In this document: positions 31,200 through 51,801 of the stretch, in pieces | Layout: every line of letters starts with the position of its first letter | Numbering within the stretch: position 1 is the first letter of the stretch | NCBI GenBank assembly: GCA_043826565.1 | Contig: JBDRPX010000004.1 | Coordinates: 10,232 to 74,231 of the forward strand | Length of the DNA stretch: 64,000 bases | Direction of reading: 5' to 3' | Source of the DNA: Candidatus Omnitrophota bacterium | Lineage (GTDB): Bacteria > Omnitrophota > Gorgyraeia > B26-G9 | The notes under the pieces: generated by a model | What the model was told of the DNA's origin: nothing | Database searches by the model: none | Seen by the model: the letters and a program-made list of their open reading frames with translations, nothing else | Position numbers and translations under genes: made by a program

Positions 31200-33128
31200 A
31201 TGGGACAATATGAACTAAATCTAAGAGATTATATTCGGATATTTCGTAAACGCCGGCCAATCATTTTTCTTACCTTTATCATTATTACTCTTATCAGTGC
31301 TTTGTTTTCGGTAAAACAGGTCTCTACATATGTAGCTGTTACCACAGTTAAAATAGAAGAGCATAAAACTGTTGCCGGATTGCTTACCGAATGGATAGTA
31401 TATCAGCCGGGAGATATTATGGAATCGGAAACCAAGATTGTCAAAGGCTATCCGGTGATGAAAAAAGCAGCGATGCATCTGGGGCTGATTGACCAGGAGT
31501 CAACTGAAGATCAAACGAATCTTGTGGTCAGCACTTTACAGGACAAAATAGAGGCGGAACGCATCGCGAACACAAATATAATCCGGATTGTTGCGACTGC
31601 TGAGAATAGCCAGGAAGCTATAGAAATTGCGACGGCGGTAGCTCAGGAATATAAAGCTTATAATCTGGAGGAAAGACGCAGCCAGGCCAGCAGTGCCCGT
31701 AAATTTATTGAGGAGCAATTGCTTTCTCTGGAGAAGCGTTTAAGAGAAAAAGAGGAAGTGCTTAAAAAATTTGCCGAACAGTATGGAGGAGCAGCGCTTA
31801 ATGAGCCTTTCCAGAAAAAACTGGCAGAGTTGGAATTTGAACTTAATAAGTTAAAGCAAAAATATACGGAAAAACATCCAAATGTTATTCAGGTACAGGA
31901 ACAGATCGCCGCGCTTAAAGAGAATAGTAAGCAATTTGCCGGAGAGGATTTGAAAATTGCGCGGATTGCCCGGGATGTAGAATCGGATAAAAAGCTTTTT
32001 TCTATGCTTAAAGAAAAGTTGGAAGAAGCCCGGATAAATGAATCGCAAAAAGTCAGCGCGGTTTCCATTGTTGACCCCGCGGTAACCGCGGAAAAGAAAA
32101 TAATCGGACCGAATAAAATCGTCGGATTATTAGTCGGTGGATTTCTCGGGCTTATTTTAGGGTTTGCCTTGGCTTTAGTGCTGGAAAATCTGGATACTTC
32201 TATCGGGACAATTGAAGATGTCGAGCGCATAGCTGACGTACCGGTATTAGGAGTTATTCCGTCGGTATTACTGGAAGGCTCGGAACGAAAAAAAAGAGGT
32301 GTTTTTAGGAATTTTAAAAATAAATTAATGAACCGGGAGACGGAAGAGGTTGACGAAAAATCTATTCGCATGATTCTTCACTATAACCCGACTTCTCCGA
32401 TAGCGGAAGCTTTTCGTAATGTGCATACAAACCTTAAACTTACCCGGGAAAAGAAAACAATTCTCGTTACCAGTGCCGGCCCGCGGGAAGGCAAAAGCAC
32501 CACTGTGACGAATTTGGCGCTTGCCGTAGCTCAGGCGGGGATGAAGGTGCTTATTGTTTCCACAGATATCCGCCGGCCGGTAATCGGCAAGACATTTGGT
32601 ATAGATAAAGAACCGGGATTAACCGATGTTCTGCTGGGGATGATTTCCTTAGATGATGCCGTAAAAAATGTTACGGATTTTATGCTCGGAGATATGAGCT
32701 TTGAAGATATTCAGCAAACTCCGGGGTTGGATAATCTTTGGGTCCTTACCAGCGGCAAATTGCAGTTTAACCCGGCGAAATTATTGGAATCAAAAGAGTT
32801 TACCGACAGTGTTGAGGCAATGAAAGAAAGATTTGATGTTATCTTCTTCGATTCTCCTCCGGTATTACCGGTTACCGATTCCAGCCTTATTGCTAAAAAG
32901 ATGGATTGTGTGATTATGGTCTATGAAATCGGCAGGACCAGCCGGGAAGCTTTACTGCGCGCGAAAAATCAGCTTGATTCTGTCGGAGCCAATATCGCCG
33001 GTATTGTGCTTAATCAGACCAGACAGGAAATCGAAGCGGATGTTATTCAGCCCTACTATTATAAATATAAATATTACAAGTCTACTGAGGAAGAGGCAGC
33101 TGAAAAAAAAGGGGTCATTCTTAATTAA
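31200..33128 (+). CDS. polysaccharide co-polymerase/BY-kinase fusion (Wzc-like tyrosine autokinase)
   Basis: N-terminal Wzz-like domain with two TMs and a coiled coil. C-terminal Walker A (SAGPREGKST) and a terminal Tyr cluster (YYYKYKYYK). Confidence 0.8.
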   Translation: MGQYELNLRDYIRIFRKRRPIIFLTFIIITLISALFSVKQVSTYVAVTTVKIEEHKTVAGLLTEWIVYQPGDIMESETKIVKGYPVMKKAAMHLGLIDQESTEDQTNLVVSTLQDKIEAERIANTNIIRIVATAENSQEAIEIATAVAQEYKAYNLEERRSQASSARKFIEEQLLSLEKRLREKEEVLKKFAEQYGGAALNEPFQKKLAELEFELNKLKQKYTEKHPNVIQVQEQIAALKENSKQFAGEDLKIARIARDVESDKKLFSMLKEKLEEARINESQKVSAVSIVDPAVTAEKKIIGPNKIVGLLVGGFLGLILGFALALVLENLDTSIGTIEDVERIADVPVLGVIPSVLLEGSERKKRGVFRNFKNKLMNRETEEVDEKSIRMILHYNPTSPIAEAFRNVHTNLKLTREKKTILVTSAGPREGKSTTVTNLALAVAQAGMKVLIVSTDIRRPVIGKTFGIDKEPGLTDVLLGMISLDDAVKNVTDFMLGDMSFEDIQQTPGLDNLWVLTSGKLQFNPAKLLESKEFTDSVEAMKERFDVIFFDSPPVLPVTDSSLIAKKMDCVIMVYEIGRTSREALLRAKNQLDSVGANIAGIVLNQTRQEIEADVIQPYYYKYKYYKSTEEEAAEKKGVILN

Positions 33129-33395
33129 TGTGAACGATTTTCTATAACTTAATGATTACTAAATTGTTAGGCTAAATTTAAGAATGTCCCTGATTACAAT
33201 GATTAAAAAATTGATTACACCGATTGGACAAGTTGTCTTAAAAACCAGTTTTTCTTCTCGAGAGTTAAATATATTAATATCTGTGTAATCTTTTGAAAAT
33301 CTGTGAAATCAGGTTCTTTCAAGTTCACAAAAAATAAGAAAGAACCAAAAAAAGAATCATTGGCGCGTCGTTAGTTCTCTATAAATTTTCGAAGA

Positions 33396-34778
33396 TTGTT
33401 TAATAAAATGCTTAAAAATAATGGATATGCTAAGTTTGGTATTATTGTTACTCTTCTTCTTGTCGGCTTGGTAAGTATTTTATCTGTTTTCTATCCGGCA
33501 TCTTCAATGATGCCTTTATTTTTAATCCTTATCCCGGTAATTTTTATCATCGCGTTTACAAATACTGATTTTGCTTTAATTGTGCTTATCTTTGCCATGC
33601 TTTTATCTCCGGAAATTGGTTTAGGCGGAGGTATCCCCGGGCGTAATGTCGTGATACGTTTAGATGATATTTTTTTATTTATTATATTTTTCGGCTGGCT
33701 GGCAAAGATGGCGGTAAATAAAGAAGTGGGATTATTAAGAGTCACATTTTTAAACAAGCCGATTATTTTTTATGTTTTTATCTGTATAGTATCTTCCTGT
33801 TTAGGAGCGTTGCGCGGAACGACTAATCCGGTGCATACTATTTTTTATATTTTAAAATATATAGAATATTTTATCGTCTTTTTTATGGTTAGTAATAATA
33901 TTAAAGATAAAAACCAGGTAAAACTATTTACGGATTTAATACTATTAACTTGTGTTATTGTCTGTATCTACGGTTCTTATCTCTCCCTGATAAAGGGGGT
34001 ACGGGCGACCGCGCCGTTTGAAGGTATTGGAGAAGCAAATACTTTAGCCGGATATCTAATTGTTATGGGCGGTCTTGTACTGGGATTGTTTGTTTACGCG
34101 TCGGCTTCTTTTCGTAAACGATTCCTGCTGGCTGGTTTGTTTTCTCTGGTCCTATTTACCTTAATTTATACTCTTTCCCGAAGCGGATGGGTAGGATTTG
34201 GTTTTATGCTTGTATCTTTTACGTTTTTTTCTAAACGAAGTAGAATTTTTATGATTTTTGCGATTGTCTGCGGGGTGTTAATCCTGCCTCTGGTCTTGCC
34301 CCAGAGAGTTTATAAACGGGTAGATGCGACCTTTAAAGGGTATAAACAATACAGGATATTTGGTAAGTTAGTAACGCTTGATGAGTCTACGGGAGCGAGG
34401 ATAAGATCTTTTGAGTATTCTGTAAAACAATGGCTGAAAAATCCGATACTTGGGCAAGGAGTGCCCGGAGCTGATGTTTCCGATGTGCAGTATGGACGCA
34501 TCTTAAGAGAAGTCGGGATTGTGGGGTTTTTGTCATTTGTCTGGATTATCTGGATGGTTTTTAAAACCGGACTGAGGAGCTACTTTTATTCTAATATGGA
34601 TGGTTTTGGCAGAGGATTAAGCGTCGGTCTTATTAGCGCCTTAGTGGGTTTGCTGATAATGGGATTAGGCGCGGAATTTTTTATTATTATTAGAATCATG
34701 GAACCGTTTTGGTTTTTAGCGGCGATTGTTTCCGTGCTTCCGGAGACAAATCTTGTTGTAGAAACAAGTCCTGCTTAA
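33396..34778 (+). CDS. O-antigen ligase/Wzy-like polytopic membrane protein
   Basis: About 10 TMs and the Wzy_C-type motif YTLSRSGWVGFG. Confidence 0.6.
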   Translation: MFNKMLKNNGYAKFGIIVTLLLVGLVSILSVFYPASSMMPLFLILIPVIFIIAFTNTDFALIVLIFAMLLSPEIGLGGGIPGRNVVIRLDDIFLFIIFFGWLAKMAVNKEVGLLRVTFLNKPIIFYVFICIVSSCLGALRGTTNPVHTIFYILKYIEYFIVFFMVSNNIKDKNQVKLFTDLILLTCVIVCIYGSYLSLIKGVRATAPFEGIGEANTLAGYLIVMGGLVLGLFVYASASFRKRFLLAGLFSLVLFTLIYTLSRSGWVGFGFMLVSFTFFSKRSRIFMIFAIVCGVLILPLVLPQRVYKRVDATFKGYKQYRIFGKLVTLDESTGARIRSFEYSVKQWLKNPILGQGVPGADVSDVQYGRILREVGIVGFLSFVWIIWMVFKTGLRSYFYSNMDGFGRGLSVGLISALVGLLIMGLGAEFFIIIRIMEPFWFLAAIVSVLPETNLVVETSPA

Positions 34779-34812
34779 GCAGGATATCATAGATAAACAA
34801 AAAGGTGGCGTT

Positions 34813-36693
34813 ATGAGCGGGATTTGCGGATTTATAAGCAATCGACAGACGGTAGACATCAACTTGTTAGAACGTATGGCTGCTTCTATGTGCTATGTTA
34901 AAGAAGATAAAACAGATAAATGGCAGTTTGACTTATTAGGCCTTTGCCGGGTGCATCACGGGCTGATTAATCAACAAACGCAGCCAATATTTAATGAAGA
35001 CAAAAATTTGTTGATTGTCATGGCCGGGGAAGTTTTTGATTATGAGGTTGAAAAGGAAAATTTAATTAAAAAAGGCCATAAATTTATTTTTGAGGATAAT
35101 GACGCGGAATATTGTCTGCATTTGTATGAAGATAAAGGCACTGAATGTTTTAAGGAATTAAACGGTTCTTTTGCTATCGCCATTTATAATTTAAAAACTA
35201 AAGAGTTGTTATTAGTCAATGACCGGCTTTCAACTTACCCTGTGTTTTATTATTCTGGAGAAAAACTCATTTTTGGCACACAGCTGTCTTCCTTGATGCA
35301 GCATTCTGATTTAGCGCGTGAATTAGATATACGTTCCTTTTTTGAATTTTTTAGTTTTGAGAAAATATTAGGGGATAAAACATTTTATAAAAATGTAAAA
35401 ACACTTCCTCCTGCCTCGGTTTTAATTTACTCAGAAAATAAAGTAGAGAGTAAAGCTTATTGGCAAAGAAAGTATACAAATAGTAATTATCCGGAAAAGT
35501 ATTATGTAGATAAATTAGCTTGCGGCTTAAAAAAATCAATAGAACGCAGAATGCGTGGTCATTATCGTTTCGGACTTCTTTTAAGCGGGGGCTTAGATTC
35601 AAGGGTAATCGCGTCTCTTAGCAATAAAAAAATGACTGCTTTTACAGTAGGAGAGTCGGCTGATCAACAGCAGGTTAAGGTCTCTAAAATGATTGCCGAT
35701 ACCTTTGGATATGAGCATGTTTTTCTTAAGCGTGAGTCAGATCACTATGCGAATCTCGCAGATAAGGCGGTGGAAATCGGCAGTGGAATGTCTTTGTTTG
35801 TAAACGCGCATAATCTTGGATTTTTCCCGATCATAGAGAAGAAATGTGATATTTTGCTGCATGGCTATCTTTGTGATACTTTATTTAAAGGCTGGAAAAT
35901 ACCGACAAGAACAATAAATATCCTAGGGAAAAAGATTAGTAATCCATTTCAGGCCTGTTCTTTTGATAGAGGGGTAATATTAAAAAATAGTTTATATTCA
36001 AAAAATCCGGCACAGCTTTTTATGCCGGAATACGCGCAGGAGTTTGAGGAAAGCATAAAGAAATCTCTGGATAATTTTTTTGCTCAGACAGAGAAAAACG
36101 GAGTTCAGGAATCACATAAAGAATATGAATATTTTGCTTTTCCTTCAGCGCTTAAACATATTGATTGTTTATATATTCTGCATAATCAGGCATGTTTTTG
36201 TGAACGGACGGTGTTGCTGGATAATGATCTTTTGGAGTTATATCTGGAAACTCCGGTTCGCCTAAGATTAAATGGTAGGTTGTTTAAAAAAGTGATTAAA
36301 AAAATTTGCCGCAAAATATCATTTATTCCGGATGCTAATACCGGCCTGTCAATTATGAGCGGGGGGATTTTAGAATGGATAGTTTTAAAGTCTAAAATGG
36401 TTTTAGATAAAATATCAGCAGGCAAAAAAAGAAAAGAGAAGCCCTCACCGCAGATGTGTAATCCTGATTCCTGGCCAAATTATTCAGAGTTAATCAGGCA
36501 TAATCAGAGATTAAAGCAGCAAATAAGCGATATTATCGAAGATCCACAGGCGCTTGATCCGTCAATTTTTAATATTTCTCGAATAAAAGAAATGTTTATA
36601 GAACATATGGAGCGAAAAAATAACCATACGATGTTTTTATTATTATTGCTTACTTTTGGAAAATGGAATAAAAAATTTCCGAGAAAAATTTAA
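34813..36693 (+). CDS. asparagine synthase (glutamine-hydrolysing) family amidotransferase
   Basis: N-terminal nucleophile MSGICGF, the PP-loop SGGLDSR, and ~626 aa length. Its EPS-locus context suggests sugar or peptide amidation rather than housekeeping AsnB. Confidence 0.8.
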   Translation: MSGICGFISNRQTVDINLLERMAASMCYVKEDKTDKWQFDLLGLCRVHHGLINQQTQPIFNEDKNLLIVMAGEVFDYEVEKENLIKKGHKFIFEDNDAEYCLHLYEDKGTECFKELNGSFAIAIYNLKTKELLLVNDRLSTYPVFYYSGEKLIFGTQLSSLMQHSDLARELDIRSFFEFFSFEKILGDKTFYKNVKTLPPASVLIYSENKVESKAYWQRKYTNSNYPEKYYVDKLACGLKKSIERRMRGHYRFGLLLSGGLDSRVIASLSNKKMTAFTVGESADQQQVKVSKMIADTFGYEHVFLKRESDHYANLADKAVEIGSGMSLFVNAHNLGFFPIIEKKCDILLHGYLCDTLFKGWKIPTRTINILGKKISNPFQACSFDRGVILKNSLYSKNPAQLFMPEYAQEFEESIKKSLDNFFAQTEKNGVQESHKEYEYFAFPSALKHIDCLYILHNQACFCERTVLLDNDLLELYLETPVRLRLNGRLFKKVIKKICRKISFIPDANTGLSIMSGGILEWIVLKSKMVLDKISAGKKRKEKPSPQMCNPDSWPNYSELIRHNQRLKQQISDIIEDPQALDPSIFNISRIKEMFIEHMERKNNHTMFLLLLLTFGKWNKKFPRKI

Positions 36694-36697
36694 TTAC

Positions 36698-38834: not shown

Positions 38835-39500
38835 ATGCGAGGAATAATCAAAAAATCGTATAGTTTTATTATAAATGCTGTTAAGGCATGGGATAAAAGG
38901 ACAAATTATGCAGCTTTGCGTTGGTTGCGGAAGATAACGAATACAAATTCTAAGAAATTTTATGATGATTTGCTTGCCCGGAAGGGGAAGCAATGGAGGT
39001 CTTTTCCTTATGAGACTCTATTGGAATTTCTTCCGACAGATAAGCCCTTTACTTTACTTGATATCGGTTGTGCTCTTGGTGACGGGTGTATTTTTTTAAA
39101 AGAAAAATTTCCTGATAGTGATTTTAGCGGGGCAGATTGGAGTAGTGTTGGTATTGCGACAGCAAAAGAAAAATCCAAAGAGATCAATTTTTTTGAATTG
39201 AATATACTTAAAAATTCTCCGCCGAAGAATTATGACTATATTAGTATGTTAAGTACTTTAGAGCATTTTGATCATCCTTATGAGGTGATTGAAAAGTGTC
39301 TGAAATTTGTTAATAAAGCATTGTTCATTTATTCTCCATACACAAAATCTTTTGATGATCCACATCTTTACGGATCCGGACTGCATAGATTCTTGTTCAA
39401 TGAAGATACTTTTGCCGGATATGACAGCGAAGTATTAAAGATAACTCAACTGGTTGAAGCGACAGGGTATCAATATATTCTTTACAGGATAAATCCATGA
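38835..39500 (+). CDS. class I SAM-dependent methyltransferase (tandem paralog)
   Basis: Motif I LLDIGCALGDG. It shares an LEHF block with the upstream gene. Confidence 0.6.
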   Translation: MRGIIKKSYSFIINAVKAWDKRTNYAALRWLRKITNTNSKKFYDDLLARKGKQWRSFPYETLLEFLPTDKPFTLLDIGCALGDGCIFLKEKFPDSDFSGADWSSVGIATAKEKSKEINFFELNILKNSPPKNYDYISMLSTLEHFDHPYEVIEKCLKFVNKALFIYSPYTKSFDDPHLYGSGLHRFLFNEDTFAGYDSEVLKITQLVEATGYQYILYRINP

Positions 39501-40732
39501 AAATACTAAGTATTTCAAATATGGATATTTGGCCGTTTGGGAAAAATAAGGGAATCCCTTCGGTATCAGCTTCGCAGATAGGATTTGCCGACTTGGGGCA
39601 TGAGGTTTATTTTTCATGTCCGCTAAAACGGAAAGGATTGCCGGCAGAGGAAGAAATGGAAGGGGTGCATATCCGGCGCTATAGACTGCCGTTTGGCCTG
39701 AGCAGTCTTTCTGTCTATAATTTGCCGATGGATAAACTGGGTAATCGAATAAAAAGCAGTATGATTTATAATCTGGAATGGTTTTTTGTCCAGATTTTCG
39801 GGTTTTTTCACGGGATTACTCTGGCGCTGCGGATAAGGCCGGATCTTATTTATGCTCATAGCACTACGGCCGCGTTTCCGGCATTTTTGATTAGCCGGTT
39901 GTGCAAAGCGAAATTTGTGATCAGGGTTTATGGGATAAAGGATATGTCTACGTTTAATACCTGGGGCCGGCTAAGAGCGATCAGGGATATCGCGGCATTT
40001 AAATTAGCGGCGGATTACTTTATTGTCACTAATGACGGTACCGGAGGGTATGCTTTGCTTAAGGATCTGGGAGTAAAAGAAGAAAAAATTAAAAATTGGC
40101 GTAATGGGATCGACATTTCTATATCAGATCCTGTGCCGCAGGCAAAGCAAAAGGTATGCGCGCAGCTGGGTATTCCGGAATCTTCACGGATCATCCTTTC
40201 TTTGTCCCGGTTTATTCCTATTTACGGTGTAGATAATCTGGTATTATCTTTGCCGGAATTATTTAAAAAACACGAGGATATTGTTTGTGTTATTGCCGGC
40301 AGCGGCCCGGATAAATCTAAGTTAGAAGCTATTGTTAATGAGGCGGGGATCGCTTCCCGGGTTTTCTTTTTGGGGACAGTCGACCATGAGCAGGTAAAAA
40401 GACTTTTATATGCCGCGGATATGTATGTGTTTTTACCGCGGATTCATAACTGCACAAATACAATGTGGGAAGCTATCTCATGTGGGGTTTGTATTTTAAC
40501 TACCGAAACAGAATCAATAAAAGAGGTTCTGATTTCCGGGGAAAACTGTGTCTTGATATCTTATCAAAGGATAAAAGAATTACCTCAGGTTTTAGATTCT
40601 CTTTTTAATGATGATGAGCAGATGCGTAAATTGGGAGAAAATGCCTTAAAGCGTTCCCAGGAGGTCTTGGAGAGCTGGCCGGATAGAATAAAGAAAGAAG
40701 CAGAGCTTTTGGAAGAATTAGTGAAAAAATGA
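39497..40732 (+). CDS. family 4 (GT-B) glycosyltransferase
   Basis: C-terminal E-x7-E region (MWEAISCGVCILTTETE). Confidence 0.7.
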   Translation: MKILSISNMDIWPFGKNKGIPSVSASQIGFADLGHEVYFSCPLKRKGLPAEEEMEGVHIRRYRLPFGLSSLSVYNLPMDKLGNRIKSSMIYNLEWFFVQIFGFFHGITLALRIRPDLIYAHSTTAAFPAFLISRLCKAKFVIRVYGIKDMSTFNTWGRLRAIRDIAAFKLAADYFIVTNDGTGGYALLKDLGVKEEKIKNWRNGIDISISDPVPQAKQKVCAQLGIPESSRIILSLSRFIPIYGVDNLVLSLPELFKKHEDIVCVIAGSGPDKSKLEAIVNEAGIASRVFFLGTVDHEQVKRLLYAADMYVFLPRIHNCTNTMWEAISCGVCILTTETESIKEVLISGENCVLISYQRIKELPQVLDSLFNDDEQMRKLGENALKRSQEVLESWPDRIKKEAELLEELVKK

Positions 40733-41772: not shown

Positions 41773-43201
41773 AAAAGTATTCCTATTAACCCCGCCATAC
41801 CGGGGCACCCGCGTAAAAGGAGTTTTTTCCGCGGGGCTTGGGTATATTGCCGAAAGCCTTAAGAACGCGGGCATTGAATATGAAGTTTGTAATATGAGTT
41901 TGGGGTATGATTATAAATATTTAAAAATGAAAATAGATAGATTTGCTCCGGGATTGATCGGTATCTCAATGATGACCTATAGATATAAACAGACCTATGA
42001 ATTAATAAGAAGCCTGAAAAAGGATTACCCCAAAATTCGGATTGTTGTCGGCGGTCCGCATATTTCTTTGTTTCGCAAAGAAGTTTTAGAAGCATGTCCG
42101 GAAATAGATTTTGGGATTACTTTAGAAGGGGAGGAGACAATAGTGGAATTGTGCAGCGGGACAGCTGCGGGATCGATCAAAGGACTGATTTATCAAGGAG
42201 AAAAAGGGGTTATTTATAATGGCGATAGGGAATTTATTAATCCCCTGGATAAGATTGCTTTTCCTCAATATGAGAAGTTTGAAATGGAAAGGATCTTTAA
42301 TAAGGAAATAAATTCCGTTCCCATAGTTTCCTCTCGCGGCTGCCCTTTTGCTTGTGTGTACTGTCCGGTTAAATTTTCCGTGGGTTGTGATTTCCGGGTG
42401 AGAAGCCCGGAAAGTATTATTGCCGAACTAAAGTATTGGCATCAGAAAGGGTACCGCAGGTTCAGTTTCGCGGATGATAATTTTACTTTAAAGAAACAGC
42501 GGATAGTTGACTTATGCGAAGCTCTCAGGAAAAACAATCTGAATGATTTAAAATTAAGCTGTGATAATGGCATCCGTGCGGATAAGGTTGATAAAGACCT
42601 TTTGAAGTTGATGAGGGATGTGGGTTTTTATAGAATAGCTTTTGGTGTGGAAGCGGGCAATAACAAAATTCTAAAGCAGTTGAAAAAAAGTGAAAATATT
42701 GAGACAATAACCGCGCGGATTCAGGAAGCCTGTGATCTGGGCTATGAGATGGATTTATTTTTTCTTGTGGGTTCTCCGGGAGAGACTTGGGAAGATTTGC
42801 AGGATTCTTTTAGTATTGCTTTAAAATATCCCATCGGGACAGCCTACTTTTATAATATTATCCCGTTTCCGCATACAGAATTATTTGATTGGATAAAAGA
42901 AAACGGCAGGTTTTTAAAAGAACCGGAAAACTATTTAGATGATTATCCGATCTTAGATAATGTGCCGCTTTTTGAAACTCCGGAAATGCCGCTTAAAATG
43001 AGAAAAAAAGCTATAAAAAAGGCGTTTAGTATTACCCGGCTAACCATGTACCGGGCTTGGACAAAACGGCTGGAAAAATTAGGCGGCCTGGGAAAAATAT
43101 TGGCGTTCATTTATACGCGGGAATTTGTTCAGGATGTGATTTTGCGCAATGAAATTACCCGAAAAATTGTTTATCGCTTAGCCTGGCTGTTTATTAAGTA
43201 A
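41762..43201 (+). CDS. B12-binding domain radical SAM protein
   Basis: N-terminal B12-binding-like Rossmann region and the CPFACVYC (C-x3-C-x2-C) cluster. Confidence 0.75.
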   Translation: MVYKKVFLLTPPYRGTRVKGVFSAGLGYIAESLKNAGIEYEVCNMSLGYDYKYLKMKIDRFAPGLIGISMMTYRYKQTYELIRSLKKDYPKIRIVVGGPHISLFRKEVLEACPEIDFGITLEGEETIVELCSGTAAGSIKGLIYQGEKGVIYNGDREFINPLDKIAFPQYEKFEMERIFNKEINSVPIVSSRGCPFACVYCPVKFSVGCDFRVRSPESIIAELKYWHQKGYRRFSFADDNFTLKKQRIVDLCEALRKNNLNDLKLSCDNGIRADKVDKDLLKLMRDVGFYRIAFGVEAGNNKILKQLKKSENIETITARIQEACDLGYEMDLFFLVGSPGETWEDLQDSFSIALKYPIGTAYFYNIIPFPHTELFDWIKENGRFLKEPENYLDDYPILDNVPLFETPEMPLKMRKKAIKKAFSITRLTMYRAWTKRLEKLGGLGKILAFIYTREFVQDVILRNEITRKIVYRLAWLFIK

Positions 43202-43212: not shown

Positions 43213-44034
43213 ATGCTTGTTTCTATAATCATACCTTGTAAAAATGAGAGTGAGAATATAAAGAGCTTACTGGAAGCTGTGCAAACGCAGGAACTTGATT
43301 TTGATAAAGAGATAATTACTGTTAATAATGTAAGCCCTTCGGGCCGGGCGAGGAATCAGGGCGCGGATAGAGCAAAGGGAGAAATCCTGGTTTTTCTGGA
43401 TAATGATATTAGTTTTGGCAGTTCTAGAGTTTTAGCAAATTTAATCGCGCCGCTTTTGGAAGACGCGGAGATCGGGATTTGCGGAGTTTCTCAAAAAATT
43501 CCCAAAAACGCGAATTGGTTTCAGCGCTGGTGTGCTAAAGAAATTCCGCATACTGAGCATTTAGTTGTGGAGAAAATAGAAGAACGGGGAATGGTGGGGG
43601 GCGCCTGCTGCGCGATAAAGAAAGAATTGTTTTTTAAATCCGGAAGATTTAATGATGGATTAAAAAGAGGGGTAGATGTTGAATTTTGTGCCCGGGTAAA
43701 GGCAAATAATTATCGTGTTGTGATTGTGCCGCAGACCTGGATTTATCATCCGCCATCGGAGAATTTATTTGAGTTTATAAGTTTGTGTTTTCGCAATGGA
43801 AAAGCTACCGCGTTTATTGACCGGTATTATCCGGAATTAAATTTTGATGTCGGCGTAGGAGAAAAAATTGGCCCGCTTAAGAAAAAAAGTATTTTAGAAA
43901 GGTTCTTACGCTATGGCCAAGGGGTTTTGAAAGCTATAGTATTTTTAAAGATATTAAATCTAATCTATAGGATTGCTTATTTTTTAGGATATATTCAGGA
44001 GAAAATATTCGGCGGGAGAAAAAATGTACGATAA
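43213..44034 (+). CDS. family 2 (GT-A) glycosyltransferase
   Basis: VSIIIPCKNE start and the DND motif. Confidence 0.7.
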   Translation: MLVSIIIPCKNESENIKSLLEAVQTQELDFDKEIITVNNVSPSGRARNQGADRAKGEILVFLDNDISFGSSRVLANLIAPLLEDAEIGICGVSQKIPKNANWFQRWCAKEIPHTEHLVVEKIEERGMVGGACCAIKKELFFKSGRFNDGLKRGVDVEFCARVKANNYRVVIVPQTWIYHPPSENLFEFISLCFRNGKATAFIDRYYPELNFDVGVGEKIGPLKKKSILERFLRYGQGVLKAIVFLKILNLIYRIAYFLGYIQEKIFGGRKNVR

Positions 44035-45376
44035 AATAGTCAAACACATCTATTACCCGTTAATGCAAAAAATTAAGGGACAAAAGGTTATTAGCTACGC
44101 GCAAAAACTTGAAAAATCGCAATGGAATACTGCCGATGTTTTAGAGAAAGAGCAATGGGATAATCTGAAAAGATTAATAGATAGCGCGGGTAAAAATGTG
44201 CCTTATTATAAACGAATTTTTAAGGAGGAAGGTATTGATACGAAAAATATTAAAAATTACAGTGATTTTAGGCGCATTCCTTGTCTGGAAAAAGATACAG
44301 TGCAGCAAAATTTTAAGGAACTTATTAATCCCGATTATAAGGAGGGGTTTTACCGGACTAAAACCAGCGGTTCTACAGGGCGGGTATTGGAATTATTACA
44401 CAGTATTGAGGTGACCAGTTGGATATTTGCCGGACAAAAAAGAGCGCAAAAATGGTTTGATGTTGAGGTTGGGGATAAAGCTTTATTTATCTGGGGAAGG
44501 CCGCTGGATTCGCGTTTTCAGGAGTTGGCGGGTTATATTAAAACGCGATTAAAGAATATTATACTGATTTCGGCTTTTGAGCTAACTGAAGCGAATCTAA
44601 AAAAACAATGGCAGAAAATAAAACATTTTAAGCCAAAATATATTTACGGTTACGCATCGTCGATTTTTAAATTAGCCGAATATGTGCAAAAGACAGACAA
44701 ACAGGCAGAGTTTTCCTCAAAAGCCGTGTTTACTACCGCGGAAACGCTTTTTAATTATCAGCGGGAAGTGATTGAAGCGGTCTTTGACTGTCCGGTAGCG
44801 CAGGAATACGGCTGTGCCGAAGTAGGCGCGTTTGCTTATGAATGTCCGCAAAAAAACATGCATATTTACGCGGAGAATGTTTTTGTGGAAGTGCTTAAAA
44901 ACGGACAGCCGGCAGCTGCAGGAGAAACCGGTGAAATAGTGATTACATCTTTAAATAATTATTGCATGCCGTTTATCCGTTACCGGGTGGGCGATATGGG
45001 AAGTTACTTAGATAAAGAGTGTGCTTGCGGCCGGAAACTCCCCTTATTGGATTTAAAAGTAGCCAAAGTTACGGATATGGTAGTGACGGCTGGCGGAGAA
45101 GTATTCTCCAGTGAATTGTTTGATTATATAAATTTAGAGCTTAAAAAGAAGCAGATCACCGGAATTGGTCAATTTCGGGTAACCCAGGAAAATCAGGAAG
45201 CTTTTGCCGTGGAAATAGTAAAACAAGAGCCATTTTCTGAGCAGGCAATTGATTTTTTCCGCAAAAAAATGATGGAATTTTTCGGCAATAATATAAAAAT
45301 AGAATTTATTTTTAAAAAGGAAATACCCAGAGATAAAACCGGAAAGATGAGATATTTTATTTCCAAATTAAAGTAA
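44024..45376 (+). CDS. PaaK/CapK-like adenylate-forming enzyme (coenzyme F390 synthetase family)
   Basis: The TSGSTG AMP-binding motif and ~450 aa length, in an EPS-locus context. Confidence 0.65.
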   Translation: MYDKIVKHIYYPLMQKIKGQKVISYAQKLEKSQWNTADVLEKEQWDNLKRLIDSAGKNVPYYKRIFKEEGIDTKNIKNYSDFRRIPCLEKDTVQQNFKELINPDYKEGFYRTKTSGSTGRVLELLHSIEVTSWIFAGQKRAQKWFDVEVGDKALFIWGRPLDSRFQELAGYIKTRLKNIILISAFELTEANLKKQWQKIKHFKPKYIYGYASSIFKLAEYVQKTDKQAEFSSKAVFTTAETLFNYQREVIEAVFDCPVAQEYGCAEVGAFAYECPQKNMHIYAENVFVEVLKNGQPAAAGETGEIVITSLNNYCMPFIRYRVGDMGSYLDKECACGRKLPLLDLKVAKVTDMVVTAGGEVFSSELFDYINLELKKKQITGIGQFRVTQENQEAFAVEIVKQEPFSEQAIDFFRKKMMEFFGNNIKIEFIFKKEIPRDKTGKMRYFISKLK

Positions 45377-46433: not shown

Positions 46434-47098
46434 TTAAACGTTTATACACCTGGTTTCATAAAGCAGTTGCTAAGGATGAAGAAAAAGATCAGCCTTCGGG
46501 CGGGGTTTGGCCGCATGTAGTCAGAAAAGGGGTTTTAAATATCTGCCAGGCAACCCAGGGGGCAGTCATGGAAGTCGGCTGCGGGGAGGGATTATTTATC
46601 CGCCAACTGGCATTAAATAATCCAGGACTGAAAATTACCGGAGTGGATAATAATAGTGTTAAATTAGAAGAAGCAAAACGTAAATGCCATGAGCTTGGGC
46701 TGGTCAATGTTAACATAATATTTGCTGACGCAGCCAATATACCTGTTTCTGCGGAATGTTTTAATTGCGTTGTGTGTATAAATGTTTTGCTCAATTTACC
46801 TTCGATAGAAGTAGTCCGAAGCATTATAAAAGAAATATCCCGGGTTTGCGCGTGCGGAGGAAAGTTTGTGTTTGATTTTCGTAATTCCGCTAATCCGGTG
46901 GTTAATTTAAAATACAGGCTGGCTCCTTATTATGATGAAACAGTTAAAAGAGACAGTTTGCCGTTAAATACATATTCATCCAAGCAGATCACGGCGCTGT
47001 TATCGGAAAACAAGTTTAAGGTCATTAGCCGGAAATATCTGGGATTTCCTTATAATCGGTTAGCGCCGATTATTATAATTGAGGCGGAAAAATGTTAA
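46430..47098 (+). CDS. class I SAM-dependent methyltransferase
   Basis: Motif I VMEVGCGEG. Confidence 0.6.
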   Translation: MIKRLYTWFHKAVAKDEEKDQPSGGVWPHVVRKGVLNICQATQGAVMEVGCGEGLFIRQLALNNPGLKITGVDNNSVKLEEAKRKCHELGLVNVNIIFADAANIPVSAECFNCVVCINVLLNLPSIEVVRSIIKEISRVCACGGKFVFDFRNSANPVVNLKYRLAPYYDETVKRDSLPLNTYSSKQITALLSENKFKVISRKYLGFPYNRLAPIIIIEAEKC

Positions 47099-48246
47099 GA
47101 AAAGTACCAATAGTTGCTGTGCCCATCGAAATTACGGATTTATTAGCGGGGTTTAATGCTTTTAGCCGGAAACTCAGTCCCGGCAGTGAACCTTCGGATG
47201 TATTTTTTGCTGATTCCGCAACAGCCTGTCTTTACACATTCCTGCAGATTCTTAAAGGTCAGTCAGATAAACAGGAGGTCATCCTGCCGGCTTATACGGC
47301 ATCGACATTAGTGATCGCGATTCAAAAGGCGGGATTAAAACCAGTGCTTTGTGATATCCGCCTGACTGATTTTAATATGGACCCGGATTCATTAAGGCAG
47401 ATTATTACGGAAAAGACATTAGCGATTATCGGTGTGCATATGTTTGGAATTGTTGATGCGGGGTTGGGTAATATTAAAAAACAATTTCCGGAAATTATCG
47501 TTATTGAAGATTGCTGCCAGGCGATGGGAAGCGAAATTGACCGTGAATTTGTGGGCAAAATGACAGATGTAAGCCTGTTTAGCTTTAATCGCGGTAAAAA
47601 CATTCCCACTTACGGCGGCGGTTGTTTGGGTTTAAATATTAAATTTCTTATAGACAAGATTAAGCAGTCCGGGGTAAGGGAACAGCCGGTGACATTGGCG
47701 CAGGAACTTAAATCAGCAGTTAAGCTGATGGCTTTAGCTGTTATTATGCGGCCGTGGGTATATGGGGCGGCTTTGCCGTTTATCGCGGGTTTAAAAGAGA
47801 AAGCTCCGGCAGAGGATTTTGCGGTCCAGGGGTATACGAAGTTTCAATTAGGTGTTCTCGGTTCTCTATTAAAGAAAATGAAATCACTAAGTCAACAGCG
47901 TTATATTAATGGAATGAAATTAATCGAAGGATTGCAGAAAACAGAAGGGGTTTGTACCCCGGAAATCGCGAAAAATACTAAGCCGGCATTTAACCGCCTG
48001 CCGGTTTTATTTAATGATCCTAAGGAGAAAGAAACCACTCAGAAGAATTTAAGTAGGTCCGGCATAGAAACTTCCCAAATGTATTTTAAACCATTGCATC
48101 ATATTTTTGCTTTAGGATATAAAAAAGAAGAATTTTCTAACGCGGTTTATCTGGCGCAGCATCTTTTGACTTTACCAACACATCCTTTGCTTGCGGATAG
48201 CGATATAGAAAAGATCATTAAAACGATAAGGCGGGTAGTTAAATGA
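47092..48246 (+). CDS. DegT/DnrJ/EryC1/StrS-family PLP enzyme (sugar aminotransferase-like)
   Basis: FSFNRGKNI putative PLP-Lys block and overall DegT-like blocks, but divergent. Confidence 0.5.
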   Translation: MLRKVPIVAVPIEITDLLAGFNAFSRKLSPGSEPSDVFFADSATACLYTFLQILKGQSDKQEVILPAYTASTLVIAIQKAGLKPVLCDIRLTDFNMDPDSLRQIITEKTLAIIGVHMFGIVDAGLGNIKKQFPEIIVIEDCCQAMGSEIDREFVGKMTDVSLFSFNRGKNIPTYGGGCLGLNIKFLIDKIKQSGVREQPVTLAQELKSAVKLMALAVIMRPWVYGAALPFIAGLKEKAPAEDFAVQGYTKFQLGVLGSLLKKMKSLSQQRYINGMKLIEGLQKTEGVCTPEIAKNTKPAFNRLPVLFNDPKEKETTQKNLSRSGIETSQMYFKPLHHIFALGYKKEEFSNAVYLAQHLLTLPTHPLLADSDIEKIIKTIRRVVK

Positions 48247-49280: not shown

Positions 49281-49317
49281 TCCCGGACCAGAATTTGATT
49301 AAGATAGGGGAAAGATA

Positions 49318-49878
49318 ATGAATATAAAAGGCGTGCATTTTAAATCAATGTTATCGGCGGTGAAGATACTTTTTGGAGAAGAGGGGTTTAAAAAGGCAGT
49401 AAGCGGTCTTACTGAAGAGGATAAAAAGATTGTCAATACCGAACGAATGGCGAGCGTAAGGTTGTTACCTTTAGATTCGGTAGTACGTTTTATGGAAATA
49501 GTTATCCGGGATTTAGCTGCTGGTGATGAAAGAATAGCTTTAAAAATGGGAAAAATAGTCGGAGACCTCGAACTTAACAGTATTTACCGGGTGTTTATAA
49601 CAACCATCGGTAATCCGGAATTTATTGTTAAGAAAACACCGATGATCTTTGAAGCTCTCCATGATTCGGGAAAGCTTACTTTTGAAAAATCCGAGGAAAA
49701 TAATTTTTTGATGACGGTTACGGGTTTTAGCAAAAATCAGCGGGTTTATGAATTTGGGATGATGGGCTGGATAAAATATTATTTTGAACTAAGCGGAGTA
49801 AAATCCGTTAAAGCGGAAATAATAAAATCTATTGGGGCCGGAGAAAAGGAAGCTCAGTATAAGTTCTCCTGGGACTGA
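49318..49878 (+). CDS. hypothetical soluble protein (186 aa)
   Basis: ORF with an RBS (GGGGAAAG). I do not recognise a family with confidence. Confidence 0.4.
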   Translation: MNIKGVHFKSMLSAVKILFGEEGFKKAVSGLTEEDKKIVNTERMASVRLLPLDSVVRFMEIVIRDLAAGDERIALKMGKIVGDLELNSIYRVFITTIGNPEFIVKKTPMIFEALHDSGKLTFEKSEENNFLMTVTGFSKNQRVYEFGMMGWIKYYFELSGVKSVKAEIIKSIGAGEKEAQYKFSWD

Positions 49879-49880
49879 TT

Positions 49881-50687
49881 TTAGTATTGAATCAAACTGC
49901 CTTGCTGGCGTGCTTTTTTTAAAGCATAGCCAAAGGCAAAGAAGCTTAAAGGGGACAGGATAATCGAGAAGATCAAAAGGATCGCGCATTCTGAGGAGAG
50001 CTGGCTCAAAGTGTAGTTTTTATATACGGCTAGTTCAATTGCTCTGATCGCGTGAGTGATCGGTAAAAACTGGGCTATTGTCTGCAAAAACTTAGGCATT
50101 ACCGCGATTGGGAAAAATACTCCGCCTAATAACCCTTCCAGATTATTGATCACCCAGGCAATGGGATTACCGCGCTTGAAGACAATGATAAAACAAGCCG
50201 AGAGTATGCCTAAACTGCTGAAGCAGATGATCGTCAGTATTAAGATTATGATCGCCGAAAGGATATTTACATTCCCAAAATCTATATGGAATAAAAATAC
50301 ACCTAAGATAAAATATATACATATATTAAATGTGGCAAAGATGAGATTCCAGCAGGCCATACTGCCTAAGATAATGCCCACGCGGGTGGGAGTTAAAAGA
50401 AGGGTTTCCAAAGTGCCCATGGTCTGTTCCTGGCGGACCTGGTCGGCAAAAGAACCCATGCCCACTCCGATATAGCTGAAAAAGGCCATGCTTAAAAGTA
50501 CATAAGAAAAGTAATTCACCCCGAATTCCTGCAGATGTTTACTTATCCGGCCGCTGAAGAGTTTATCGATAAAAAAATAGGTAAGCAGAAGGACAAAGAC
50601 GCTGAATATATTCAGAAAAAAAGAAAGCTTATAACTGGTTTCAATGAGCAGGTCTTTTTTTATTAAGGCATATAATTTTCTAAACAT
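49881..50687 (-). CDS. ABC-2 type polysaccharide exporter permease (Wzm-like)
   Basis: Six TMs with an ABC-2 membrane profile. It overlaps the ATPase gene start. Confidence 0.7.
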   Translation of the reverse strand: MFRKLYALIKKDLLIETSYKLSFFLNIFSVFVLLLTYFFIDKLFSGRISKHLQEFGVNYFSYVLLSMAFFSYIGVGMGSFADQVRQEQTMGTLETLLLTPTRVGIILGSMACWNLIFATFNICIYFILGVFLFHIDFGNVNILSAIIILILTIICFSSLGILSACFIIVFKRGNPIAWVINNLEGLLGGVFFPIAVMPKFLQTIAQFLPITHAIRAIELAVYKNYTLSQLSSECAILLIFSIILSPLSFFAFGYALKKARQQGSLIQY

Positions 50688-51462
50688 TTTTTGTTAGTTC
50701 CCTATATATATCGGTTAAACCGGCTTTGGGCATTTTAGTTTGCTTCCTTAGTTCTTCAATTGTTCCGTTTCCGCAGAGTTTTCCTTTGTGAAGGATGAAA
50801 AATAAATCACAAAGATCTTCAGCTTCTCCTATATTATGTGTAGCCATAAGAATTGTTTTTCCCTCGTCGGAAAGGTTCTTAATTGTAGTTTTTAAAGTCT
50901 CAGAAGAATTATAATCCAGGCTTTTCATGGGTTCATCTAAAAGCAAAAGGGACGGTTCGTGCAGAAGCGCTCTGATCAGGGAGAGTTTTCTTTTCATGCC
51001 CGTAGAATATGAATCAAAGCGCTGGTTTTGATAGTCAATGTTGAATAACTGAAGGAGCTCGGCTAGCCGTTTTTTTGTTTGAGCCTTATTTAAGCCGTAC
51101 AAAGCGGCGAAAAATTCCAGGTTTTGTAATCCGGAGAGTCTCCAGTAGAAACTGCGGTCGTCATTGGAAACCAGCCCGATATTTGATTTAACAGCGATGT
51201 CATTTGTTTTGACCGAATAATTGTTTACGATAACATTGCCTTCATCAGGAAACACAAGCGTGGAAATTATTTTAAGTAAAGTAGTTTTGCCTGCGCCGTT
51301 TTCTCCGAGTAAACAGGCGATTTTCCCTTGGGGTAAAGAAAAAGATACATTGCTTAATGCGGTTATCCGGGGCATTTCCCGCAATAGAAGCATATCAGTG
51401 ATTGAGGCAGGAGTTTGAAATTGCTTGGTTAAATTTTCTATGCTTAATATTGTATTATTCAT
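50680..51462 (-). CDS. ABC transporter ATP-binding protein (Wzt-like)
   Basis: Walker A GENGAGKTT, signature YSTGMKRKLSL, and Walker B LLLDEP. Start taken at the ATG at 51462 (the TTG at 51498 is also possible). Confidence 0.8.
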   Translation of the reverse strand: MNNTILSIENLTKQFQTPASITDMLLLREMPRITALSNVSFSLPQGKIACLLGENGAGKTTLLKIISTLVFPDEGNVIVNNYSVKTNDIAVKSNIGLVSNDDRSFYWRLSGLQNLEFFAALYGLNKAQTKKRLAELLQLFNIDYQNQRFDSYSTGMKRKLSLIRALLHEPSLLLLDEPMKSLDYNSSETLKTTIKNLSDEGKTILMATHNIGEAEDLCDLFFILHKGKLCGNGTIEELRKQTKMPKAGLTDIYRELTKNV

Positions 51463-51801
51463 GTAGATAAGGTTAACAGATAAGCCTGTTTTCGTCAAGG
51501 TACAAGACAGTCGCTAAGCGCTCAGCTACTGCGTTATTTTTTCGCTTACTTGTGCGACGTGCATTTTGCACGCCTCCGCGTTCGCTCAAAAAAGCCTTGT
51601 ATCTGAGCACTTTTCGACAGCTTGTATGATTCTTTATGGTTTTTGTTTAAGTTATCTGTGTCTTGGGTCTTGCGTCTTGAGTCTATTAATTTTTTCCCTT
51701 GTAAGTGTTTTTATGACTGTGATACAATTAAATAAATAGGGGCGGGGCAAAAATACCGCAGATATTTCATGGAATGGATTATTAAAGACAAGGAGTGGGG
51801 T

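Follow-up and report, generated by a model that had tools for sequence, protein, structure and literature searches.

The closest described counterparts of the locus presented here are the group 1 capsule and colanic acid loci of Enterobacteria. In these loci Wzc, a polysaccharide co-polymerase of type 2a (PCP-2a) that has a Walker A motif and, at its C-terminus, a cluster of tyrosines, is encoded together with a flippase of the multidrug/oligosaccharidyl-lipid/polysaccharide (MOP) family, a polytopic Wzy_C protein and several glycosyltransferases (GTs) in one co-directional operon. The same components are found at positions 31200-49878 of the DNA studied here, a stretch of 64,000 nucleotides (nt) from contig JBDRPX010000004.1 of a Candidatus Omnitrophota bacterium, hereafter the window. 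Differently from the enterobacterial loci, the window lacks Wza, the Wzb phosphatase, a priming WbaP/WcaJ enzyme and nucleotide-sugar synthesis genes, and contains a B12-binding radical S-adenosylmethionine (SAM) enzyme (B12-rSAM), GT9 proteins, CapA, CapK and an AsnB-like enzyme. Glycan loci in general are known for their great diversity.

For the B12-rSAM, the nearest described enzymes are the class I cobalamin-dependent radical SAM enzymes MgmA/QCMT, TsrM, TokK, CysS and OxsB, with which it shares an N-terminal Rossmann B12-type domain and a radical SAM barrel with a CxxxCxxC motif. C-methyltransferases are the largest known group of cobalamin-dependent radical SAM enzymes, and the sugar-acting members GenK, GenD1 and MoeK5 come from antibiotic pathways (PMC12931638). 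AprD4, which acts on an aminoglycoside sugar, has the same fold and is reported not to bind cobalamin (2026 superfamily review, for the cobalamin statement). A sugar substrate would be a parallel between GenK, GenD1, MoeK5 and AprD4 and the window enzyme; the setting differs, since the gene described here belongs to a polysaccharide assembly operon and not to a small-molecule antibiotic cluster. The 2026 review mentions no B12-rSAM from a polysaccharide locus, and searches of the literature for such enzymes in loci for polysaccharides, O-antigens or capsules found none.

What is new is thus a Wzx/Wzy glycan operon with ordinary export machinery, whose conserved core holds an uncharacterised B12-rSAM; also new is the conserved linkage of this glycan locus to an exporter and to a radical SAM-peptide cassette. 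On balance, the region 31200-49878 probably forms a single operon-like locus, from which this Omnitrophota bacterium would make a Wzx/Wzy-dependent surface heteropolysaccharide under the control of Wzc, tailored as proposed below. Its 16 genes, all on the + strand and mostly overlapping, were assigned by Pfam and NCBIfam searches against curated cut-offs, on a window annotation of open reading frames (ORFs) of at least 100 amino acids (aa):

31200..33128 (+): Wzc-like co-polymerase fused to a bacterial tyrosine (BY) autokinase, PCP-2a type; Pfam GNVR, AAA_31 and Wzz
33396..34778 (+): Wzy_C-domain polytopic membrane protein; Pfam Wzy_C 39 bits, cut-off 31.7
34813..36693 (+): AsnB-family adenylating enzyme, variable slot; GATase_7 88 bits, Asn_synthase 63 bits
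36656..38161 (+): Wzx, MOP-family flippase; Polysacc_synt_3 284.9 bits
38158..38808 (+): MT1, class I SAM methyltransferase; Methyltransf_12/23/31/25/11; lowest GC content of the locus, 0.29
38835..39500 (+): MT2, class I SAM methyltransferase, tandem paralog of MT1 (47% identical); Methyltransf_23/12/25
39497..40732 (+): GT4 (GT-B) glycosyltransferase, core; Glycos_transf_1 99.9 bits, Glyco_transf_4
40729..41772 (+): PGA_cap (CapA/PgsA/MslH-family) metalloenzyme, accessory; PF09587 250 bits, cut-off 27
41762..43201 (+): B12-binding radical SAM enzyme, conserved core; B12-binding (PF02310) 65.7 bits, cut-off 32.1; Radical_SAM 82 bits
43213..44034 (+): GT2 (GT-A) glycosyltransferase, core; Glycos_transf_2, Glyco_tranf_2_5
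44024..45376 (+): CapK/PaaK-like adenylate-forming ligase, accessory; CapK_C (PF27533) on the identical database protein P0129
45378..46433 (+): GT9a glycosyltransferase, core; Glyco_transf_9 85.7 bits
46430..47098 (+): MT3, class I SAM methyltransferase, core; Methyltransf_25/31/11; kept after GT9 in orthologous loci
47092..48246 (+): DegT/DnrJ-family sugar aminotransferase, core; PF01041 142 bits
48243..49280 (+): GT9b glycosyltransferase, accessory paralog, 38% identical to GT9a; Glyco_transf_9 86.6 bits
49318..49878 (+): orphan 186-aa ORF (orf186), last of the array; no Pfam or NCBIfam match

The spacing between these genes ranges from -38 to +37 nt, with the single exception of an AT-rich interval of 267 nt between Wzc and Wzy_C. 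Directly after the array comes a convergent pair of ATP-binding cassette (ABC) transporter genes of the ABC-2 type on the - strand, and the two facing stop codons are 2 nt apart. An initial annotation, made from the letters and the ORF list, had joined both parts into a single glycan locus at 31200-51498, limits that coincide with the start of Wzc (31200) and the start of the minus-strand ABC ATPase gene (51498), and had named a split into two unrelated adjacent operons as the observation that would speak against it. The + strand array does behave as one operon-like unit; the ABC-2 pair is instead a separate, convergent transcription unit. All gene classes listed in that annotation were found by Pfam and NCBIfam, including the three methyltransferases and the two GT9 proteins, and its list was correct except that it omitted the DegT/DnrJ aminotransferase and the orphan ORF at the end of the array. 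Scans of 30000-49999 for sigma-70 promoters (69 promoter-like sites vs 60.5 expected) and for terminators (matches mostly inside genes) were uninformative.

The gene order was compared with that of six B12-rSAM relatives and 80 species-representative loci, onto which all window proteins were mapped. A core emerged, in the order Wzc, Wzy_C, a segment of variable genes, Wzx, one methyltransferase and sometimes a second, GT4, B12-rSAM, GT2, GT9, a methyltransferase and DegT. Among loci of at least 8 kb, 11 have a B12-rSAM that reaches 57% identity or more to that of the window, and in 10 of them most of this order is present, the divergent L016 being the exception; synteny extends over L001/L007, L002, L004/L014, L009, L010, L012, L015, L018, L022 and L041, with 38-84% identity per gene. 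Since the same order recurs in about 12 species-level genomes, the arrangement is not due to chance. The GT4 gene always lies directly 5' of B12-rSAM (or of CapA) in the orthologous loci, and the GT2 gene always directly 3' of B12-rSAM.

Between and after the core genes there are slots of variable content. In the window they are occupied by the AsnB-like gene (between Wzy_C and Wzx), by CapA and CapK (which flank B12-rSAM and GT2) and by GT9b and orf186 (after DegT), the last two being specific to the window genome; GT9b is missing even in the closest relative, L001. Elsewhere, the slot between Wzy_C and Wzx contains a TagF-like transferase and a deacetylase, or a nucleotidyltransferase, a methyltransferase and a CDP-alcohol phosphatidyltransferase. 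Hypervariable polysaccharide cassettes have been described in a 2026 preprint on complete Omnitrophota genomes, and a core with variable slots fits that description. The tailoring set, which had been called unusual as a whole, thus falls into two parts: B12-rSAM belongs to the conserved core, whereas AsnB, CapA and CapK are variable accessories. The variable part at 33001-39000 also displays a dip in GC content (MT1 0.29, AsnB-like 0.35 and MT2 0.35, vs a window mean of 0.39); a dip of this sort is typical for the exchangeable part of glycan loci. In some relatives DegT is followed by a second radical SAM/SPASM gene of about 385 aa with a Fer4_12 domain (L002 17300-18457, L004 16792-17946, L129 14478-15380), and equivalents in L009, L010, L012, L015, L018 and L041 extend it to most orthologous glycan loci. 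The encoded protein is 21-24% identical to the radical SAM enzyme of the peptide cassette described below and has no PqqD partner; the gene is found neither in the window nor in its closest relative.

The B12-rSAM itself falls under the cut-off of every named NCBIfam B12-rSAM family. The motif C194-x3-C198-x2-C201 is invariant in 24 orthologs. An AlphaFold2 model (predicted local distance difference test score, pLDDT, 92.7) has the class I cobalamin-radical SAM architecture, and the closest folds are MgmA/QCMT, TsrM, AprD4, CysS, OxsB and TokK (Foldseek E about 1e-23, TM-score 0.62-0.72), AprD4 giving the best TM-score (0.72); identity to any solved member does not exceed 23%. The most likely reaction is the C-methylation of a sugar; an AprD4-like radical dehydration is the alternative, because AprD4 ranks first by TM-score and has an aminoglycoside sugar as its substrate. 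At E<=1e-20 the enzyme has at least 2531 relatives. Considering loci of at least 8 kb, glycosyltransferases are present in all 11 with a B12-rSAM at least 57% identical and in at least 16 of 28 with one 40-56% identical. The latter, more distant relatives bear the labels Elusimicrobia, Planctomycetota, Nitrospirota, DPANN archaea and Patescibacteria, and are mostly found among glycosyltransferases. In two of these loci, L006 (10001-18515, from an Elusimicrobia metagenome-assembled genome, MAG) and L005 (3523-11449), two to four distant B12-rSAM paralogs per glycan locus alternate with GT2/GT4 enzymes, methyltransferases, ArnT-like PMT_2 proteins and carbamoyltransferases.

The assembly machinery around this enzyme is of a familiar kind. 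Wzc exceeds the cut-off of TIGR01007 (161.7 bits vs 108.05) and has two transmembrane segments, the Walker A sequence GPREGKST and the C-terminal tyrosine cluster QPYYYKYKYYKS; its orthologs, 47-68% identical, stand first in the related loci. The Wzy_C protein, with about 12-13 hydrophobic segments, is kept beside Wzc in the relatives and, judging from its domain, may be either a Wzy-type polymerase or an enzyme of the O-antigen-ligase type. Wzx is recognised by NF007773 (PRK10459) with 308.7 bits against a cut-off of 273; its true start is probably slightly downstream of the listed TTG codon, the L001 ortholog having 487 aa and beginning 7 nt past AsnB. GT9a is fused to a methyltransferase in L001 and L004.

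Among the accessory enzymes, the CapK-like protein had no match in the Pfam copy searched, and its NCBIfam scores are all under cut-off (DVU1553_fam_AMP 142 bits, FlxY 133 bits, PaaK 97-107 bits with cut-offs of 646-700). Nevertheless, the original CapK-like call is supported by these PaaK-type matches, by PaaK crystal structures (58-107 bits, the best being PDB 4r1l with 106.7 bits) and by CapK_C on the identical protein. The protein contains the TSGSTG motif (the P-loop of the ANL superfamily) and a C-terminal KTGK with its lysine, and its relatives lie in a glycan-locus setting in all three cases sampled. The best functional precedent is VpsH of Vibrio cholerae, a PaaK/CapK-like enzyme genetically required for glycine addition to the carboxylate of N-acetyl-L-gulosaminuronic acid (L-GulNAcA) in the lipid-linked disaccharide of Vibrio polysaccharide (VPS); this glycine modification is dispensable for chain assembly (PMC13463779). 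Both are PaaK-like adenylate-forming enzymes within a Wzx/Wzy locus with a predicted amide on a sugar carboxylate, and dispensability in Vibrio fits the accessory distribution of CapK here. Differently from VPS, whose description includes no PGA_cap enzyme, the window CapK is paired with one; the likeness to VpsH is one of description, not of compared sequences.

The PGA_cap protein has no transmembrane segment and is soluble. Its nearest solved structure is MslH, a calcium-dependent peptide C-terminal epimerase (PMC10406935); both His/Asp dyads and most metal ligands are kept, with equivalents of D11, E44, N87, H88, D91, H259 and H295 present and H261 replaced by Gly. CapA and CapK are jointly present in the window, L007, L010 and L129 and jointly missing in the other orthologous loci, and this strict pairing suggests that the PGA_cap enzyme acts on the appendage installed by CapK. 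By analogy, it is possibly an epimerase like MslH. A role in poly-gamma-glutamate synthesis does not agree with the window, where no PgsB/PgsC-like gene was found among the annotated ORFs.

The third accessory enzyme had been described as an AsnB-like amidotransferase, a description that needs correction, since the N-terminal Cys nucleophile is replaced by Ser both in the window protein (MSGICGF) and in its 76%-identical ortholog (MSGIAGF). Both termini align with MCGVAGW of 7ylz, and eight other AsnB-like genes of the related loci begin with MCGI. Thus glutamine-dependent amidation is doubtful; more probably, the enzyme forms an amide by adenylation and draws on a different nitrogen donor. 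The PP-loop SGGLDS is intact. Every NCBIfam model is under cut-off (TIGR01536 177.3 vs 267.1), and the only orthologous locus that has the gene, besides the window, is that of the closest relative, L001/L007, whose B12-rSAM is 84% identical.

The three methyltransferases are all generic class I enzymes, and DegT has its pyridoxal phosphate-binding lysine, in SFnrgKN (alignment to 7b0d). No homolog of orf186 was found across about 130 related loci. Its AlphaFold2 model is of low confidence (pLDDT 61), and the Foldseek matches, all to H-NOX domains (E 1e-6, TM-score 0.34), are merely a hint; the model resembles ligand-binding domains of the H-NOX/V4R type.

Assembly could proceed as follows. A priming transferase encoded elsewhere would start the repeat unit on undecaprenyl phosphate, and the four glycosyltransferases would extend it; DegT would turn one of its sugars into an amino sugar, and the three SAM methyltransferases would methylate hydroxyl or amino groups. 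The B12-rSAM would modify an unactivated sugar carbon, most likely by C-methylation or, alternatively, by AprD4-like radical dehydration. The CapK-like ligase may adenylate a sugar carboxylate and join it to an amino acid or amine, as proposed for VpsH; the PGA_cap enzyme may then act on this appendage, possibly as an epimerase, and the AsnB-like enzyme may make a second amide without glutamine hydrolysis. Finally, the unit would be flipped by Wzx and polymerised by the Wzy_C protein, with Wzc setting chain length and export. The initial annotation had expected a heavily methylated, amidated or acylated polysaccharide, and a polymer with methyl groups, amino groups and amide decorations is indeed what these enzymes predict.

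Several observations weigh against this reading. The Wzy_C domain is common to polymerases, WaaL-type ligases and PglL-type O-oligosaccharyltransferases and does not tell them apart. Among the annotated ORFs of the 64-kb window there is no priming phosphoglycosyltransferase (no Bac_transf or Glycos_transf_4 match) and no Wza/OPX protein (no Poly_export match), nor does the window encode enzymes of nucleotide-sugar synthesis (dehydratase, Ugd); therefore the pathway is incomplete as seen, and the uronic acid is assumed. Related loci do contain such genes, namely a Glycos_transf_4 gene in L002, a Bac_transf gene in L005 and a Wza (Poly_export) gene directly upstream of Wzc in L004. The chemistry and substrates of B12-rSAM, CapA, the AsnB-like enzyme and the methyltransferases are predicted ones, and AprD4, the best structural match of B12-rSAM, does not use cobalamin. 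Several taxon labels on the MAGs with related loci (Elusimicrobia, Planctomycetia, Clostridia, Coxiella) may stem from wrong binning, which makes the multi-phylum spread uncertain. The ABC-2 pair stays with glycan genes where the peptide cassette is missing (L106, L109), so a glycan-related role is possible for it. Finally, the GT9 proteins are closest to heptosyltransferases of lipopolysaccharide (LPS): GT9a reaches 120.2 bits on heptsyl_trn_II (heptosyltransferase II), whose cut-off is 134.6; on heptosyltransferase III, GT9a has 117 bits and GT9b 105 bits.

This last point, the absence of Wza from the window and the naming of the Pfam Wzy_C family after O-antigen ligases could together be read as signs of an LPS outer core and O-antigen locus, in which the GT9 enzymes would be heptosyltransferases acting on the lipid A-core and the Wzy_C protein a WaaL-type ligase. 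We regard this as unlikely. Both GT9 proteins are under every curated cut-off, no Kdo transferase, lpx or ADP-heptose genes are present among the annotated window ORFs, and Wza is found next to Wzc in L004. Moreover, the first gene of the locus encodes a PCP-2a protein that has both a BY-kinase domain and a tyrosine tail; such proteins go with capsule or exopolysaccharide (EPS), while O-antigen systems use Wzz.

The reading as a Wzc-controlled surface polysaccharide has also to be compared with the original proposal of two polysaccharide export routes in one locus, which brings in the neighbouring ABC-2 pair:

49881..50687 (-): ABC-2 permease with six transmembrane segments; ABC2_membrane 58 bits
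50680..51498 (-): ABC ATPase, DrrA/ABCA-like; ABC_tran 98.9 bits, drrA subfamily 201.8 bits

The exporter genes are present as listed in the initial annotation and are a conserved neighbour of the locus. However, family comparisons do not identify the pair as an exporter of the Wzm/Wzt, KpsMT or TagGH kind, and it is DrrAB/ABCA-like, as far as sequence comparison can tell. The ATPase, whose gene overlaps that of the permease, is without a carbohydrate-binding extension; its best PDB matches are ABCA3/4/7/1 and small DrrA-like proteins, with no Wzt, KpsT or TagH in the top 60. The permease has no PDB sequence match, and its NCBIfam matches are weak and mixed (YadH-like, DrrB, SagH, and KpsM with 24 bits against a cut-off of 300). 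Two polysaccharide routes are thus not borne out: the pair is a separate convergent unit and its ATPase ranks with ABCA/DrrA.

The same annotation had likened the locus to EPS loci of the PEP-CTERM/exosortase type, with control by a nearby sigma-54 two-component system. The locus and its surroundings do share a chain-length determinant/tyrosine kinase, an O-antigen-ligase-like protein, an AsnB-family enzyme, GT4 enzymes and a nearby NtrC-type regulator with the EPS loci associated with the exosortase XrtA, and there are weak but significant matches to XrtA-associated models of the chain-length determinant, tyrosine kinase, amidotransferase and GT4. The resemblance is superficial: all these models are far under cut-off (TIGR03007 125.2 vs 278.85, TIGR03018 113.7 vs 230.65 and TIGR03108 160.8 vs 816.9; for GT4, TIGR03088 78.9 vs 409 and TIGR04063 73.8 vs 442), and general models score higher. 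The NtrC-type regulator gives 427.9 bits on the PEP-CTERM-box regulator model TIGR02915 (cut-off 502.6) and more on AtoC/NtrC models. No exosortase was found among the annotated ORFs (100 aa or more) of the 64 kb, in agreement with what had been noted before, and the AsnB-like enzyme, without its Cys nucleophile, is not conserved in the locus family.

Neither Wzc nor Wzy_C is preceded by a sigma-54 promoter-like site; a scan of the window gave 14 matches vs 22 expected, none of them before the glycan locus. The best site, at 61187-61202 with one mismatch, precedes the gene of a secreted protein rich in repeats and longer than 938 aa, which starts at about 61.2 kb and runs off the window end, its C-terminus lying beyond. 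Judging from this site, the NtrC-type regulator probably controls the secreted repeat-protein gene rather than the glycan locus. Even with the conserved ABC-2 pair in its favour, a PEP-CTERM-type EPS locus with two export routes and sigma-54 control is most improbable. In the region 57101-64000 (+), a HAMP histidine kinase, the NtrC-type sigma-54 response regulator and a small zinc-ribbon protein are encoded first, and this promoter-like site follows just downstream.

On the other side of the ABC-2 pair lie a gene for a SurA-N-like protein and, at 53309-57096, a cassette of peptide-modification genes:

51769..53193 (+): SurA-N-like secreted or anchored protein with an N-terminal hydrophobic segment; sub-threshold SurA_N_2/_3
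53309..53758 (+): S24/S26-type serine peptidase with a C-terminal transmembrane segment; Peptidase_S24 29.6 bits, sigpep_I_arch 44.9 bits; serine motif GNSMFP
53755..54921 (+): NTP_transf_5 protein (PsmN-like); PF14907 144.7 bits
54926..55762 (+): HprK-like P-loop protein (ScmC/HprK-related); weak ScmC 28.7, HprK_rel_B 23.7 and HprK_rel_A 20.1 bits; Walker A GASEHGKTT
55701..56021 (+): PqqD-family peptide-recognition protein; PF05402 54.8 bits, E 1.2e-14
56089..57096 (+): radical SAM/SPASM enzyme; Radical_SAM 81.9 bits, SPASM 34.7 bits

Orthologs of the SurA-N-like protein, 53-64% identical, are present in L001, L087, L091 and L093. The serine peptidase may act as the leader peptidase in this cassette. 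With the NTP_transf_5 protein as query, a homolog search gave eight matches, and protein P0122 (530 aa, on a contig of 4.7 kb) is a natural fusion of Peptidase_S24 and NTP_transf_5, which supports a functional link between these two adjacent genes. The HprK-like gene is kept in the cassettes of relatives, and the adjacency of PqqD and radical SAM genes is kept in the window and nine related loci. Among NCBIfam models, PqqD matches the lasso PqqD chaperone best, with 44.6 bits against a cut-off of 80; the gene probably begins downstream of the TTG that was listed as its start. The PqqD gene overlaps the 3' end of the HprK-like ORF and is easily overlooked in ORF lists with a floor of 90-100 aa. 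The radical SAM/SPASM enzyme, whose matches are all under cut-off (AhbD/NirJ and the peptide maturases WgkB, GeoRSP, MftC and ScmE), is a candidate peptide maturase.

Precursor-like peptides are encoded on the contigs of 11 relatives. They have 45-57 aa, a leader with KK.Y.KP.[LIV], a core with 3-4 Cys and often a C-terminal Ser; none matches an NCBIfam family. The candidate precursors in these cassettes are the following:

L087 13965-14198 (-): candidate precursor
L090 11797-11961 (-): candidate precursor
L091 7917-8090 (-): candidate precursor
L095 2727-2921 (-): candidate precursor
L098 2093-2227 (-): candidate precursor
L103 13395-13568 (-): candidate precursor
L104 12623-12805 (-): candidate precursor
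L107 5379-5534 (-): candidate precursor
L108 13774-13944 (-): candidate precursor
L110 12271-12420 (-): candidate precursor
L123 11797-11961 (-): candidate precursor

In the window no precursor gene could be recognised by a hidden Markov model of the relatives' precursors, a YxKP motif scan or inspection of intergenic ORFs, and none is recognisable in L093, which has the same gene order. Cys-rich ORFs at 51518-51736 were discarded, as they have no leader motif.

The cassette resembles, for its radical SAM/SPASM-PqqD pair, SynChlorMet and, for its PqqD, HprK-like and NTP_transf_5 proteins with an adjacent ABC exporter, the paeninodin and pseudomycoidin lasso clusters (PMC6993621). In pseudomycoidin biosynthesis an HprK-like kinase, PsmK, phosphorylates the C-terminal Ser of the precursor, and PsmN, an NTP_transf_5 protein, is needed for the addition of a hexose to that phosphate (PMC6993621); the C-terminal Ser frequent in the relatives' precursors fits this precedent. 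Conversely, no lasso cyclase and no B2 or transglutaminase-like protease was found in the cassette, where the maturase is a radical SAM/SPASM enzyme and the peptidase is of the S24/S26 type; the cores are Cys-rich in relatives, the cassette is fixed beside a polysaccharide locus, and the window has no recognisable precursor. A radical SAM/SPASM maturase together with Cys-rich cores suggests thioether cross-links. A lasso-peptide reading that joins AsnB, PqqD, HprK, NTP_transf_5 and the ABC pair was rejected, because the AsnB-like gene lies in a variable slot of the glycan operon and is missing in many cassette-bearing relatives; with the model for lasso cyclases, the protein reaches 106.5 against 525. 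Literature searches for HprK, PqqD or NTP_transf_5 with EPS found nothing relevant.

The relationship of the three neighbours was followed in a metagenome scan with the permease, which yielded 42 contigs; 26 of them have a full-length permease gene and represent 24 lineages at 95% nucleotide identity. Where at least 1.5 kb of flanking DNA was available, Wzc-Wzy_C was found on the ATPase side, in divergent orientation, on 14 of 17 contigs, and the peptide cassette on the permease side, again on 14 of 17. Glycan locus, ABC-2 pair and cassette remain adjacent through three gene orders, within the Omnitrophota lineage covered here. In the first, the glycan locus is followed by the ABC pair on the opposite strand and by SurA and the cassette (window and L093; L007 up to SurA, where the fetched DNA ends). 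In the second, the cassette precedes the ABC pair, on the opposite strand, and Wzc-Wzy_C (at least eight contigs). In the third, the cassette lies directly 3' of DegT on the same strand, at about 70 nt (L087).

This adjacency might be nothing more than inherited synteny among envelope-related genes of one Omnitrophota lineage, the glycan operon ending at 49878 and the ABC-2 pair and the cassette forming an independent cluster for a peptide made on ribosomes and modified after translation (RiPP), with its own exporter and with no functional tie to the glycan operon. This explanation is plausible enough to be kept in mind, even if we tend to doubt it. It agrees with the position of the ABC pair on the opposite strand, with the DrrA/ABCA-like ATPase, of a type usual for peptide, drug or lipid export, and with a cassette that is complete for a RiPP cluster, to which the relatives' versions add a precursor gene. 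Furthermore, all contigs with the adjacency have permeases 49-71% identical to the query and are thus fairly close relatives, and no cassette gene was found within 10 kb of B12-rSAM genes in other phyla. On the other hand, the adjacency has been kept through three gene orders, two orientations and 24 lineages; in L087 the cassette follows DegT closely on the same strand, and in L106, where no cassette is near, the ABC pair and a GT4 gene run in the same direction and overlap. In L109 the pair lies beside Wzc with type II secretion genes on its other flank, also without the cassette.

At the opposite extreme, the three neighbours could make one product, a peptide-anchored polysaccharide or a heavily glycosylated RiPP, which we consider very unlikely. 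Here a Cys-cross-linked peptide matured by PqqD and the radical SAM/SPASM enzyme would be phosphorylated on its C-terminal Ser/Thr by the HprK-like protein; a sugar would be primed on it via NTP_transf_5, as with PsmK/PsmN, and then extended by the GTs or used as acceptor by a ligase-type Wzy_C protein, while the ABC-2 pair would handle the peptide. Such a scheme would explain why no priming phosphoglycosyltransferase lies beside the locus.

As for the rest of the window, its GC content is 39.4% and nearly all genes in the 64 kb are on the + strand. Upstream of the glycan locus there are housekeeping genes (dapF/A/B, panC/D, nadA, tRNAs, trigger factor, clpP, serA, purA, larB/larC and secG) and genes for an SBP_bac_5 protein, an M48 peptidase and a LOG-family protein; an Rfam scan matched four tRNAs and nothing else. 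Two adjacent PilZ-domain genes, at 10453-11393 (+) and about 20 kb upstream of the glycan locus, encode candidate receptors for cyclic di-GMP.

As for the biology of these bacteria, the position of B12-rSAM between two glycosyltransferases is fixed in many uncultured lineages, and the examined members of its more than 2,500 relatives lie mostly in glycan loci. The block GT4-B12-rSAM-GT2-GT9 is a defined and expressible place to seek C-methylated or deoxygenated sugars on lipid-linked intermediates, and the CapK and PGA_cap pair and the Cys-less AsnB-like enzyme are candidate routes by which glycans could receive amino acids or amides. The conserved core with its variable slots resembles, for Omnitrophota, a common antigen with serotype-like decorations; to our knowledge, little else is known about the cell surface of this phylum. 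The lasting linkage to the radical SAM-peptide cassette and the exporter raises the question whether peptide and glycan pathways cooperate. For radical B12 chemistry in the assembly of polysaccharides, the locus is a concrete test case with a wide distribution.

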